IMG/VR virus record: IMGVR_UViG_2546826724_000006
Span: 23,029 to 87,028 of that record
Length of the DNA stretch: 64,000 nt
From: a virus
Taxonomy: Duplodnaviria; Caudoviricetes
Strand: one strand, 5' to 3'
The position numbers and the translations under genes were made by a program. Below are positions 11,217-22,844 of this stretch, piece after piece. The notes beneath the pieces were generated by a model. The model was not told where the DNA came from, did no database searches, and saw only the letters and a list, made by a program, of their open reading frames with translations. Positions within the stretch are counted from its first letter, which is position 1. Each line of letters begins with the position of its first letter.

Positions 11217-11875
11217 ATGGCACGACGCCAGACACGAGTGACGATCAAGGCTGAGCCGACGTTGGACGAAGACGGCAGGGTGATCGCGCCGGCCCAGCCC
11301 GGCCGAGACGAGGGCAAGACCTACGTGTTGACGGAGATGTCCGCCAAGCAGGCCGAGAGCTGGGGTGGCCGGGCGTTGACGGCGCTCACGCACTCCGGGG
11401 CCGAGCTGCCGGACGAGATCATGACGGCAGGCATGGCAGGGTTCGCCATGATGGGGATGCAGGCCCTAGCGGGGATCAAGTTTGAGGAAATCGAGCCGCT
11501 GATGAACGAAATGTTCGAGTGCGTGCGGATCGCCCCCGACCCGAAGAACCCTGACTTGGTGCGTGACCTCGTTGAGGATGACATCGAGGAAGTCTGGACG
11601 CGCGTTAAGCTGCGGATCGCCGTGCTTGACCTTCACGTCCGCCCTTCCACGCCCGTCGCCCCCTAGACATCGGTTCGGTTGGGGACGACGGGTTGCCGGC
11701 ACGATGGCGGGAGTTTGAGAACGTCTCTCGCTCTATCGCCATCGTCATGACCGAGAAGTTCGCGACCATGGGCGAGCTGGATACCATCTACGGCTCGCAG
11801 GACTTGGCCGATATGGTCGAGATCATCAGCATCAACGCGCACAACGCGCGGCTGCTACAGCCCAAACCGCGCTAG
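11217..11875 (+). CDS. Satellite tail assembly chaperone (11217-11666) with -1 frame extension to 11875
   Basis: Aligns with helper 37508-38130 (RDxGKT..LTEMSA..AE.W..SGAELPD..DDIEEV) in both frames. Confidence 0.88.
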
Positions 11876-11889
11876 CTACAGGCCCCCAC

Positions 11890-12354
11890 ATGTTCGTGGA
11901 CTTCACCCATGCCGGGCGCGCTGCGCTCGACAATGCGATCCCTCATGCGTCGGCGCACCTCGTGCCGATGCTGAAGGCCGTTCGGGATCACGGGATGGCG
12001 TTCGTCATCGCCGCGCAGTCTCGGCGCGGGTTTGCGATCCCGGAGACCGGCCCGGCCGTCGTCATCATCGGCGACGACATGGCCCGGTCCCTTGGACCGC
12101 CTGGCTTCCACCTCAAATCCGTTCGGCGGCTTCTCGGCCGGGCGAAGGTCGTCGCCGTGATGGCGGGCGCCCCGGTGGAGACGATGTACGCCCGCATGAC
12201 GCGTGACGCGGTGGAGCGCCGCGCCATCGTCGTGCTGATCGAGACCACGACCGCCCATGAGGAGGAGTGGAGCGCCTACGCGGAGGACGTGAACCCCGAC
12301 GCCGACCTTCACCTTGTGTCGCCGACCGTGGCGAATTTGGGGGCGCCGGCATGA
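11890..12354 (+). CDS. Hypothetical protein
   Basis: 154-aa ORF, coupled to next gene. Confidence 0.6.
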   Translation: MFVDFTHAGRAALDNAIPHASAHLVPMLKAVRDHGMAFVIAAQSRRGFAIPETGPAVVIIGDDMARSLGPPGFHLKSVRRLLGRAKVVAVMAGAPVETMYARMTRDAVERRAIVVLIETTTAHEEEWSAYAEDVNPDADLHLVSPTVANLGAPA

Positions 12355-12611
12355 AGGATACCGCCCCCTTCGGCACCGTCGAGACCGCGTGCGACTTCCT
12401 CGCCGAGATGGCGGCCGGCGTGATCGCGCACGCCTCCGTCATGCAGAGCTACGCTGAGGCCCGGTACTATCCCGGCTTGGACTACGCCACTCGGCACACC
12501 GTCGCGTTCCTGCGCGCGATGGAAGCCGCGCACGCCGAGGTGGAGCGCTCGCGCGCCGTCGTGGCCTACCGCAAAGGCGCCGAGGCTATCGGGCCGGGGC
12601 AGGGTGTCTGA
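12351..12611 (+). CDS. Hypothetical protein
   Basis: ATGA overlap upstream, TGATG overlap with helicase. Confidence 0.55.
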   Translation: MKDTAPFGTVETACDFLAEMAAGVIAHASVMQSYAEARYYPGLDYATRHTVAFLRAMEAAHAEVERSRAVVAYRKGAEAIGPGQGV

Positions 12612-19740: not shown

Positions 19741-19743
19741 AGC

Positions 19744-20595
19744 ATGGCCTTCGCCGCGAAGTTCATCAACGTCACCATAGAGCTGCAAAATCCTGGCTCG
19801 CAAGGCGGGGTCAACAAAGCGACCATCAAGAACCATCGTGTCGCCGTTGCCGTCGAACAGAACGGCAGTCCGGACATGGGCAAGGCCACGTGCAGTATCT
19901 ATGGCCTTAGCCTCTCGCTAATGAACCAATTAACGCAGCTTCCATTCATGGCAGAGGCTGTCGGCAACAACAAAATCATGATTGAGGCCGGCGAGGGCAA
20001 CGGCGTCCCGAAAAAGGTCTACTCGGGGACGATCTTCGCGGCGTTCGCCGACATTCGCGCTCCTATTGGCGCCTTGCGGGTGGATGCGCTCGGCGGATAC
20101 TACAATGCCGTCGCTCCGGCGACGCCGACAAGCAAAGAGGGGGACGCGGATGTCGCAACCCTCCTCGGCCAGATCGCCAAGCAAGGGCAACTCACCCTCG
20201 AAAATAACAACGTGTCGTGCGTCGTGAGAGATCCTTATTTGCCAGGCTCTAATCGCCAGCAAATCAAGCATCTCGCCGAGTCGGCCGGCATCAATTGGCT
20301 AATTGAAGACGATAAGCTCGCGATTTGGCCGAAGAACGGTAGCCGGAATGGCGACGCCGTGAAGGTAAGCAAGCTGACCGGTATGGTTGGCTATCCGCGC
20401 TACACGGCTAGCGGGATTGAAGTCGTCGCGACGTGGAACCCGAACCTGCGATATGGCGGAAGTATTCAGGTCGAAAGCGAATTAACCCCGGCCTGCGGTA
20501 CGTGGTACATCGTGAACATTGCGCATGAACTTGAAAGTGAGACGCCGAATGGAAGGTGGTTCACGATCCTTACCTGCACGAGATTGAAGACTTAG
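19744..20595 (+). CDS. Satellite baseplate hub
   Basis: Paralog of 42643-43506 (IYGL.LSLMNQLT, PYLPG, MVGYP, PNGRWF). Confidence 0.9.
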   Translation: MAFAAKFINVTIELQNPGSQGGVNKATIKNHRVAVAVEQNGSPDMGKATCSIYGLSLSLMNQLTQLPFMAEAVGNNKIMIEAGEGNGVPKKVYSGTIFAAFADIRAPIGALRVDALGGYYNAVAPATPTSKEGDADVATLLGQIAKQGQLTLENNNVSCVVRDPYLPGSNRQQIKHLAESAGINWLIEDDKLAIWPKNGSRNGDAVKVSKLTGMVGYPRYTASGIEVVATWNPNLRYGGSIQVESELTPACGTWYIVNIAHELESETPNGRWFTILTCTRLKT

Positions 20596-20604
20596 AGGTA
20601 CAAG

Positions 20605-22844
20605 ATGGCTACGGTTCTGGATACTCTTGTCGTACAACTTGGCCTCGACCCTAAGGCTTTCGTCAAGGGTACACAGCAGACCACGGGTGCGCTCGCCAAG
20701 ACCCGTGAGGGGGCGCTCAAGGAAGGCAAGCAGATCGAGCGCTCGCTGGACAACGCCAGCGAGTCCGTCGAGCGCCTTGCCCGCAACGCCTTGAAACTGG
20801 CAGCGATTTTCACCGGCGGGCGAGCCCTCGGAACATTCATAACCGATATCGGCCGGGCGGACGCCGCTATGGGCCGGATGGCTGACCGCCTGGGCGTAGC
20901 GCCCGAACGGGTCGCGGCCTTCGACAACGCCATCAAGCGGATGGGAGGCTCGGCCGGCGAGGGCGCCGCCGCCTTCCAGCGCATGTCGGATACCGTCAAC
21001 GAATTGCGATCGACAGGAAATTCCTCGGCCCTGCCGGCGCTCGCCAAGCTACAGGCCATGTCCGGCCAGCAAATCCGGTTGAACGGCGAGACGGAGGAGT
21101 CGCTAGGCGACCTCGCCGAAGCCGCCAAGCGGGCCTCTGAGCGCGTCGGCGCCGCGCGGGCCAGCTTTGAGCTTCGGAGCGCCGGCTATAGCGATGCCGC
21201 GATCAATCAGCTTCTCAAGGGCCGTGCCGAGCTACAGAAGGCCCTGGCGCAGTCACAGCGATCCGGCCTCGTGTCGAAGGCCGACGCCGACGCCGCCCGC
21301 GCGCCCTCGGGGCTCAGTATGAGGATCTGTCCGACAAGGTGGCGGACTTCGGCCGGCGGATCAGCACGGCGCTGACGCCGATCCTCACCGACCTGATGAA
21401 GCGGTTCGGCGACTGGATCGACAAGAACAAAGAATGGCTCGCGCAGGACATTGCGACGGAGGTCGGCAAGTTCGCGACCGAGCTGCGCAAGATCCCCTGG
21501 GATGACGTAGCCAAGGGGATCAAGGAGTTCGTCAAGGGCGCGAACGACGGCGCGCAGGCGGTCGGCGGCTGGACCCGTGTCGCGGAGATTTTCTTCGGGC
21601 TCTGGATCGGCAGTAAGGTGGTGGGGGTTCTCGCCAGCATCGCCGCGATCCGGAACGCCCTCGTCATCGGCGACACGTCGTTGCTCGCGGCCATGGCGCG
21701 CGTCGGCATTCCGGTCGCAATCGGCGCCGTCGCGATGGGCCACGGTTTCCAGACGCCAGAACAGGCCGCGAAAGACCCGGATCAGGCTCTGCTTCAGCGC
21801 GAGGGTATCGACCGCCGGGCGCGGGTGCGCGGGTGGCTCGGAGACAGGTACGATGACGTGCGGCGGTTTGGGCGCCGTCTACTCGGCGGCGGTAGCGCGG
21901 AGGCCGGCGAGGACGACCGTCACTCCGATGGCATTCGTCGGCGCGGTCGCCGGGCAGCTCAGAATTATGATGGGAGCGGTGCGACGCCTCCCCGGGGTGA
22001 TGGTAGCGGCAATGCCCGTGCGGCTCGCACTGCTGACATGATGCGGTATGCGATGGATCAGCTAAAGCGCGAGGGTGTGCCGGAAGCGCATCTGCGGCAG
22101 TCGGCGGCGCACCTCGTCGGACAAGCGACGATGGAGTCGGGACTAGACCCGAACAAGACCCATGATCCCGATGCCAGTGGCCGTCCGACCGGCTATGGCA
22201 TCTATGGCGCGCGACTGGTTCGGCGCGACCGGATGCTGCGCTGGCTGGAAAAGAACGGCTACGCGAAGAACTCTGCGGAAGGCCAGATGCGGTACATGTC
22301 GCATGAAGCCATGAACGATAAGACCTACGCAAGAACCCGCAGCATTCTGATGGGGGGCGGATCCGGTAATATCGACGCGGACACCGACACCATCACGAAA
22401 AACTTTGAGAGCCCGAAGTTCGTCAACCGTCGTTCCGGTGCCGTTCGGAATGCCCTGCGGACTGGGGCCTCGCCAGAGCCGCAGCGCGAGAAGGACATTA
22501 AGACGATCCAAGACACGGTTTCCGGCGCCCGCAAGCCTGAAGTTCTGGCGGATCCCAAGGACGAACGCCGCAAGCCGATGGCCTCGCTATTCTACGGCGA
22601 CACCCCGCCTGGCGTGCAGGCGGGTGCGCGATCCGCAGTCGCGCAACAGCAGAGTGCCCTGGCGGATCGAGCTGCCGTCACTCAGAACGACAACCGGAGC
22701 ACAAGCACCTCCACGCAGGAAGCTCACTTCCACGGCGACATGGTGTTTCAGAACGCCGGGGACAGTCGCGAGATCGCCAGCAACCTGCGGGCGCGCTTGA
22801 AGGAGCCGCAGTTCGTCTCGGCGGCAAATACCGGACAGGCGTAG
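20605..22844 (+). pseudogene. Satellite tape measure protein with phage tail lysozyme domain; frameshift near 21300
   Basis: MATVLDTLVVQLGLDP matches helper TMP start; two ORFs join into 745 aa if one GC is removed from CGCGCGC (21298-21304). Confidence 0.85.

Follow-up and report, generated by a model that had tools for sequence, protein, structure and literature searches.

An integrative satellite-like element embedded in a prophage capsid gene carries paralogs of the inner-tail genes of its helper

Satellites with tail genes and the locus under study

The closest described parallel to the locus analysed here is the Vibrio cholerae satellite PLE11, which encodes a tape measure protein (TMP), a tail assembly chaperone (TAC) and a baseplate hub (Mathur, Boyd et al., Nature 2026, PMC12987554). 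As revealed by mass spectrometry, its TMP and hub replace those of phage ICP1 in virions with chimeric tails, and its protein Rta blocks the ICP1 tape measure. According to the same paper, tmp and tac are conserved across PLEs, putative tmp genes exist in other satellites including some phage-inducible chromosomal islands of the capsid-forming kind (cf-PICIs), and it is asked how widespread such tail manipulation is. The window considered here, i.e., a stretch of 64,000 nucleotides (bases 23029-87028 of the 87,028-base provirus record IMGVR_UViG_2546826724_000006, CheckV completeness 91%), contains a satellite-like integrative element of 18,307 bp (9980-28286, + strand; all positions are those of the window), which splits the major capsid gene of a contractile-tailed prophage, hereafter called the helper, and carries paralogs of the helper genes for chaperone, spike, hub and tape measure.

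Helper-embedded PICIs (HE-PICIs) are likewise found in the capsid gene and in other late genes of their helpers (Tommasini, Mageeney, Williams 2023, PMC10111431). They pick up late genes from the helper in blocks of as many as 17, for which cycles of capture and loss have been proposed, and the disrupted gene is restored only by excision of the satellite at a short identity block of 10 bp. They are described there as Enterobacterales PICIs whose helper is lambdoid and in which an int-alpA zone occupies one end, and the survey records tail-tip families in 0 of its satellites. The EPIPs of Mycolicibacterium aichiense, as presented in a preprint (PMC12822802), are TMP-bearing satellites with particles of altered tail length; their host is actinobacterial, their helper a siphovirus by the described morphology, and they encode head-related proteins and a serine integrase, with neither hub nor spike reported in that account. 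The cf-PICIs, finally, have their own packaging genes and combine own with helper-derived virion parts, making their own capsids and taking whole tails. An earlier note on this DNA had named only the cf-PICIs as a known case, for contrast, which is out of date given that PLE11 builds chimeric tails (PMC12987554).

Insertion site, gene content and tail-core paralogs

The major capsid gene of the helper (phrog_264) is split into an N-terminal part at 9423-9998, corresponding to profile positions 10-110, and a C-terminal part at 28372-28971, corresponding to positions 143-321 of 321. An exact 11-bp direct repeat marks the two ends of the insert, with the left copy (attL core, 9969-9979, +) lying within the capsid gene and the right copy (attR core, 28276-28286, +) at the point where the capsid frame resumes before it ends at 28971. 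Both halves are cut off by stops at the junctions, and the capsid frame continues across the repeat.

Public sequencing runs were analysed as Logan contigs and are coded X1 to X4, with X1 being the likely source run. In X3, a contig reads through 25898-28275 with zero differences and then continues with 9969-10619, i.e., it goes back by 18307 positions, and this joint is a circular or tandem recombination product at the repeat. Contigs of X2 bridge the N-terminal capsid part and the element at 9976 as well as the element and the C-terminal capsid part at 28269, and the X2 element thus resides at the same site in the capsid gene; the X4 contigs end at both junctions, which is consistent with an element in the same site. 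The repeat inside the split capsid gene and the recombination joint in X3 bear out the claim of the earlier note that the attachment (att) site lies within a prophage.

Together, the contigs of X2 and X4 cover positions 11111 to 21727 and 21754, respectively, with 1.7-5.5% differences (97 of about 5,600 letters over 16122-21727 in X2, and 148 of about 2,675 letters over 19080-21754 in X4). Within this coverage lie the chaperone, terminase, spike and hub genes and, of the tape measure, the first half. At least one independent run holds the same gene set. Because the N-terminal part of the helper capsid gene differs at 39 of 477 letters (8.2%) in both X2 and X4, as compared to the 1.7-5.5% in the element, the element looks, from these divergences, more mobile than its helper. 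Seven of the 40 differences listed (1,392 further ones lie outside this list) fall into the spike gene, all of them at third codon positions. The contigs of X2 and X4 skip positions 25868-27097, and therefore the first integrase (25858-26994) is not part of the elements in these runs. Parts of 21869-22519 and 26426-27076 also have no cover in X2 and X4; a contig joining across such a part indicates that it is replaced, and a gap is otherwise uninformative.

The main genes of the insert are all co-oriented with the late genes of the helper. They start with a resolvase-like gene, followed by the chaperone and its extension, an AAA_25 or primase-helicase-like replication protein (12611-13861, +; PF13481, E 1e-35; phrog_906), a serine-recombinase-like gene, a small conserved gene and the large terminase (TerL) (together 15664-17567, +; TerL phrog_2, E 9e-21), two genes without assigned function, and the spike, hub and tape measure genes. 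The small gene possibly encodes a small terminase. The right part consists of three further genes without assigned function, an Ant/Rha-type regulator and two tandem tyrosine integrases at the right end (25858-28210, +; phrog_1, E 1e-63 and 5e-64; 27% mutual identity).

Five of the 10 pairs found at E<=1e-3 in an all-against-all blastp comparison of the 71 open reading frames (ORFs) of the window are the tail-core pairs that the earlier note had claimed, all on the + strand. The chaperone at 11190-11666 is 58% identical over 149 aa to its counterpart at 37508-37993 (E 2e-55), the spike at 19051-19740 is 64% identical over 234 aa to that at 43503-44201 (E 1e-106), and the hub at 19744-20595 is 45% identical over 282 aa to that at 42643-43506 (E 2e-82). 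The tape measure accounts for two pairs, its N-terminal part at 20605-21375 matching residues 1-232 of the helper protein (38134-40560) with 50% identity (E 7e-73) and the next part at 21339-22844 matching residues 248-357 with 45% identity (E 3e-28). With identities of 45-64% and the family and fold matches given below, the four paralogs hold up, as does the gene order spike, hub and tape measure described for the element; in the helper, the same genes follow the phage order chaperone, tape measure, hub and spike.

When the element was searched by tblastn with 29 helper proteins as queries (E<=1), only the TAC, spike, hub, TMP and the C-terminus of TerL were found and nothing credible for sheath, tube, wedge or fibre, in agreement with the earlier note. 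Neither this search nor PHROGs and Pfam scans of the element's ORFs yielded a capsid, portal or protease gene. The element is thus a capsid-less and tail-shaft-less integrative element embedded in a prophage. Its incomplete set of virion genes (without capsid, portal and tail shaft), together with its own means of integration and excision at a defined att site (the 11-bp repeat, the two tyrosine integrases and the joint in X3), would make it a phage satellite in the general sense. Since the genes for sheath, tube, wedge, fibre, capsid and portal are not in the element, these parts must be borrowed from the surrounding Mu/E217-like prophage. The element's TerL is unlike that of the helper except for the last 75 residues, which share 37% identity (17319-17543 versus 3858-4070), and this common C-terminus may reflect docking on the same portal.

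Both chaperone copies belong to phrog_1932 (E 8e-38 for the element copy, for which an alternative start at 11217 is possible), and PF21822 stays just below its cut-off on the element copy (21.2 versus 22 bits). Directly downstream, a 60-aa extension in the -1 frame (11693-11875, +), the 'T' part of a G/GT-type pair, is homologous to the -1-frame stretch after position 37900 of the helper. Such an extension follows the chaperone in most of the chaperone-holding phage relatives examined, and on these homologies it belongs to the tail-core set. In the helper, a canonical -1 slippery heptamer G_GGT_TTT is in phase at 37894; the element chaperone has a different sequence where the helper has the heptamer, yet the -1-frame extension is conserved.

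The central spike (19051-19740, +) is assigned to the gp138/gpV type by fold only, as it has zero PHROG or Pfam family matches and a sequence search of the PDB returned nothing for spike or chaperone. An AF2 model built with 25 homologs is of moderate quality (mean pLDDT 62). Its top Foldseek matches are PhiTE 9cuy_Y, E217 8eon_F, the cell-puncturing protein SN Orf41 (4ru3) and Pa193, followed by phi92 gp138; with E values of 1e-5 to 6e-4 to the PhiTE, E217, SN Orf41 and Pa193 spikes, the protein is predicted to form a trimeric needle of OB-fold and beta-helix. Its length of 229 aa compares with 225-237 aa in 33 homologs, one of which carries PF18352. Residues H217 and H219 are invariant in the alignment and presumably correspond to the iron-binding HxH apex motif of such spikes. 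The hub (19744-20595, +) matches phrog_196 (E 7e-54) and PF22759 (E217_GP41, E 1e-18), where it covers positions 2-269 of the 279-position profile, and in the PDB it matches the Pam3 gp19 and E217 gp41 hubs.

The window has a G + C content of about 64%, which drops to 54% over 26001-28000, and nearly all of its long ORFs lie on the + strand. Because Methylobacterium and Methylorubrum supply the nearest named homologs of the element's terminase, the host is, on this homology, Methylobacterium or a close relative. PHROGs and Pfam matches on the window's ORFs identify the surrounding prophage as a contractile-tailed phage with a Mu/E217-like tail gene order. Its head genes are arranged as antiterminator, TerL, portal, head morphogenesis protein, protease/scaffold, minor head protein and major capsid protein; downstream of the capsid gene follow Neck1, sheath, a tube-position protein, the chaperone (37508), the tape measure (38134), two small baseplate-region genes (41412 and 42338), the hub (42643), the spike (43503) and then wedge proteins and fibres. 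Three tandem paralogs of phrog_2085 with 28-43% mutual identity lie directly 3' of the capsid gene (28943-30363). Megablast comparisons of the element and of the helper tail region with 50,697 phage records gave zero matches.

Some further features of the insert are worth recording. A terminator-like hairpin at 10023-10044, with 7 G-C pairs out of 8 and a T-rich tail, lies just inside the left end, directly after the stop of the truncated capsid frame, and could serve as a stop for helper late transcription at the insertion; a promoter and terminator scan of the region found no enrichment over shuffled sequences. That the serine recombinase is broken into three frames was considered and dropped, since matches in relatives span about 220-240 of the 237 residues encoded at 14237-14950. 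Between TerL and spike, the 257-aa protein of 18056-18829 has zero Pfam or PHROGs matches; using language-model features only, a protein atlas gave a lead (score 0.95) to Psu-like clusters, one of them consisting to 79% of Pfam Psu (a phage P4 protein family), and a homolog adjoins Neck1 and the tape measure in Methylobacterium sp. J-077. For the neighbouring protein of 17580-18059, the atlas returned nothing.

Tape measure variation and related loci

The tape measure gene of the element (20605-22844, +; phrog_9570) appears in the window as two overlapping frames (20605-21375 and 21339-22844), so that the claim of a tape measure gene starting at 20605 stands as regards the paralogy with 38134 and falls as regards a single gene in the window. 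The split is caused by two extra letters in a run of three CG units at 21298-21303; contigs of X1, X2 and X4 lack these two letters. With these two letters removed, one 745-aa frame with zero stops results, which is 47% identical to helper residues 1-357, and a 19-kb contig of X1 carries this shorter form. The length difference at 21298 could be an assembly choice or real length variation, and part of the X1 population may really carry the broken form. The possibility that the gene is a decayed pseudogene was dropped, since the contigs of X1, X2 and X4 are in frame and read through without stops. The 745-aa frame exists only in the shorter form, and the chaperone, located 9 kb away, has no canonical slippery site in the last 200 bases of its gene.

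Within the tape measure lies a phage tail lysozyme domain (Phage_lysozyme2, 22095-22418, +; PF18013, E 9e-10, residues 253-360 of the second ORF), and the middle of the helper tape measure matches an endolysin family (phrog_90) at residues 465-608. By tblastn, the two tape measures align at helper residues 1-442 and 683-808; between these parts, the sole match is a weak one of residues 630-674 (E 0.016), and nothing in the element aligns with residues 443-629. In run X4, positions 21754-22506 are replaced by 757 other letters in an otherwise 94-96% identical element, and this replacement covers the same part of the tape measure that differs between element and helper. The cell-wall hydrolase domain of the tape measure therefore looks, from these alignments, like a hot spot of exchange.

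With respect to relatives of the element's backbone, a single-protein pattern scan with the element TerL found zero relatives in viral or genome contigs, and a profile of 31 TerL homologs led to 80 genome loci (the best 80 of 536 confirmed). In tblastn searches of these 80 loci with the element's proteins, the small gene upstream of TerL was found in 22, the integrase in 17, AAA_25 in 13 and the recombinase-like gene in 10; from the tail core, the N-terminal part of the tape measure and the hub were found in 4 each. With helper proteins as queries, the tape measure was found in 6, Neck1 and the protease in 4 each, and hub and fibre in 2 each, whereas none of the 80 loci matched sheath, tube, either wedge protein, capsid, chaperone or spike. 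The ORFs downstream of TerL are highly diverse. Their biggest blast cluster is a tape measure (12 ORFs in 11 of the 80 loci), a second TMP type occurs in 2, and the 34 largest of these ORFs include 11 with matches to the same TMP PHROGs and at least 2 with matches to another TMP type. Hub and Neck1 also recur at this position; there is no portal cluster, and a capsid-type (HK97-type) cluster is present in only 4 of the 80 loci.

Single loci illustrate this variation: Methylobacterium sp. J-077 has TerL, two genes without assigned function, Neck1 and a 737-aa tape measure; the M. cerastii locus has hub, Neck1 and tape measure; and the M. suomiense locus has a chaperone-like gene, head protease, Ant and integrase. 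To judge by these searches, the backbone family often carries inner-tail genes, and the four genes are not a fixed module. The C-terminal part of the helper capsid was found in 0 of 5 genomes with backbone relatives in a search confined to this one late gene, and these relatives are therefore not inserted in this capsid gene.

A second carrier of similar genes is a cassette of plasmid type. In 44 IMG/VR loci, the order is the phage one of hub, spike, wedge; two metagenome contigs (L136 and L137) and the plasmid NZ_CP155002.1 (L138) have the order chaperone, extension, spike, wedge W, hub and tape measure, with open cassette tape measure ORFs of 860 and 867 aa. The plasmid, a 33.7-kb circular plasmid of Methylobacterium fujisawaense with the intact, rearranged cassette at 15257-21712 and 28999-29445, encodes homologs of the two small baseplate-region genes, chaperone, extension, spike, wedge W, hub, the 867-aa TMP and Neck1. 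Helper queries found no sheath, tube or head genes on it, and 8 of 10 further ORFs have no PHROG match; besides a Tn3 transposon, it carries genes for a partition ATPase, an integrase and a HigB toxin, the last of these next to an XRE-family regulator.

In a spike tree that was midpoint-rooted and has several long outgroup branches, the element spike belongs, together with five database proteins, to a clade of its own with 6 proteins (support 100/98), which is sister to the helper-type clade (92/87), and the cassette forms a separate clade (100/98). An inheritance of the spike-hub-TMP order from the plasmid-type cassette is unsupported by this tree, where the element clade is sister to the helper type.

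Proposed chimeric tails and competing explanations

Because a capsid-less embedded element recombines exactly at its repeat and keeps open inner-tail genes, the best reading, to which we incline with modest confidence, is that these are tail-core genes of a satellite embedded in its helper prophage and that they would yield chimeric tails. By analogy with PLE11, the element's proteins would enter virions and confer a benefit on the satellite. Upon induction, the element would excise at the 11-bp repeat, restoring the helper capsid gene, and replicate. Its chaperone with the -1 extension would hold the element's own tape measure, the tape measure, hub and spike would form the central complex of the baseplate, and helper wedges, tube, sheath and fibres would assemble onto it. 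The resulting satellite particles would have a chimeric tail in which the core that pierces the cell and conducts the DNA is their own, a different cell-wall hydrolase domain included. The earlier note had proposed a chimeric tail with a replaced central axis. This is plausible as far as the intact inner-tail genes go and too broad for the axis, which would not be wholly replaced, as two helper genes are uncopied.

This reading is plausible and not new in kind, PLE11 being its precedent. Like the element, the PLEs (PLE11, PLE4 and PLE1) are capsid-less satellites of a contractile-tailed phage with their own TMP, TAC and hub beside the helper's own copies, and as described they take sheath, tube, other baseplate parts and fibres from ICP1 (PMC12987554). 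However, ICP1 is a lytic phage and the helper of the element a temperate prophage, and the element carries a spike besides TMP, TAC and hub, unlike PLE11. Its proteins are also closer to those of the helper (TAC 58%, hub 45%, spike 64% and N-terminal part of the TMP 50% identity) than the figures given for PLE11 and ICP1 (TMP 20%, TAC 20%, hub 41%; PMC12987554). No Rta-like inhibitor was identified in the element, and its backbone, with its own large terminase and its location inside the helper capsid gene, is unlike that of a PLE. As host class and backbone differ, membership in the PLE family is unlikely, and the claim is limited to a PLE-like way of working.

As in HE-PICIs, the helper capsid gene is split and a short identity block is used, 11 bp in length instead of 10 bp, and late genes are taken up from helpers. 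Unlike HE-PICIs, however, the element is alphaproteobacterial and has its integrases at the far, downstream end, its own TerL and genes for the baseplate core; AlpA had zero matches in the PHROGs and Pfam scan of about 24 element ORFs, which did reveal an Ant/Bro-like protein (phrog_63). It differs from the EPIPs in having both hub and spike. In contrast to the cf-PICIs, it has no major capsid, portal or protease of its own and supplies tail-core parts, although own packaging genes and a combination of own and helper virion parts are common to both. In a limited literature search, no satellite with a spike or baseplate core was found besides the PLEs.

Several observations weigh against chimeric tails. 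The canonical slippery heptamer, present in the helper, was not found in the last 200 bases of the element chaperone gene. The two helper genes between tape measure and hub (41412-42335 and 42338-42646) have no copy in the element (tblastn, E<=1), and compatibility of the element's proteins with the helper parts is therefore an assumption. The tape measure is frameshifted in the window, and even in X1 no more than 316 of the 587 depth units at 21298 belong to the shorter form. With the element's proteins as queries, spike and chaperone were found in 0 of the 80 backbone loci, and a co-occurrence of the four genes across related elements, which the earlier note had suggested as a check, fails, as the tail-core cargo varies, with the TMP being the commonest and the spike being found in none. 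Near homologs of the spike are also rare in genomes (2 of 301 family genomes, both of them distant), and there is no RNA run among the public runs listed.

An att site within a helper gene implies that the element must enter cells that already carry the helper. A joint proposal, which we consider doubtful, combines this point with the existence of an undescribed satellite class of Methylobacterium and other Hyphomicrobiales, in which the swapped core would pass the DNA-entry block of the helper lysogen. Such a class would be characterised by its own large terminase, an AAA_25 replicase and a variable tail-core slot with a tape measure, to which chaperone, hub, spike or Neck1 may be added. The swapped core would consist of the spike and of a tape measure whose hydrolase domain is exchanged even between near-identical copies. 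The evasion of helper superinfection exclusion that the earlier note proposed for new entry parts would be an effect of this kind.

Alternatively, the paralogs might sabotage helper tail assembly as dominant-negative hub, spike and TMP that tie up wedges and tube, lowering the yield of the helper, and satellite particles could do without them. A reduced helper yield is a common effect of satellites, systems that interfere with tail assembly are described, some of them on PICIs (PMC11364771), Rta of PLE11 provides a further case (PMC12987554), and with 36-55% divergence from the helper proteins mixed complexes could indeed be defective. However, the satellite itself needs working tails and has no tail shaft genes, and a full-length TMP with intact lysozyme domain, the chaperone extension and the invariant apex histidines of the spike resemble working parts, just as the PLE11 equivalents are structural according to PMC12987554. 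Interference is therefore improbable as the role of these genes, though compatible with chimeric tails.

We hold it to be just as improbable that the late genes were passively captured by recombination from a helper-like phage and, having no adapted role, are heading for loss. The capture of late genes by HE-PICIs and their proposed cycles of capture and loss (PMC10111431), the very variable cargo after TerL among the relatives and the frameshifted TMP of the window would all fit such a course. However, identities of 45-64% mark the paralogs as old and not as recent copies, and although rearranged and split over two places the genes are all open, with the TMP in frame in contigs of three runs. 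The spike differences listed, all at third codon positions, the spike's clade of 6 proteins (100/98) and a non-random gene set that matches the functional set of PLE11 likewise speak against passive capture.

Very unlikely, finally, is the view of the stretch as what remains of a second, related prophage, integrated into the first and stripped of most genes. The phage-derived tail genes and the mosaic history suggested by two integrases and a serine recombinase would fit this view. However, elements in other runs have the same compact gene set at 94-98% identity, the recombination junction is precise, the backbone of AAA_25, recombinase-like gene, small gene and TerL is common to loci without a portal cluster after TerL and, in all but the 4 of 80 named above, without a capsid-type cluster, and the TerL end resembles that of the helper.

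Satellite-built chimeric tails have been proven in one system only, the Vibrio PLE and phage ICP1 (PMC12987554). The element described here is a clean case in another bacterial class, with a temperate helper and four core parts, the spike included, that are recognisable paralogs of helper proteins. As it is locked into the helper capsid gene, helper and satellite should be inducible together from one strain. The case also points to the enzyme domain of the tape measure as a hot spot of exchange, and the benefit of a private injection core can be tested on it; the satellite might thereby enter lysogens, escape its own anti-helper factors or compete for helper parts.

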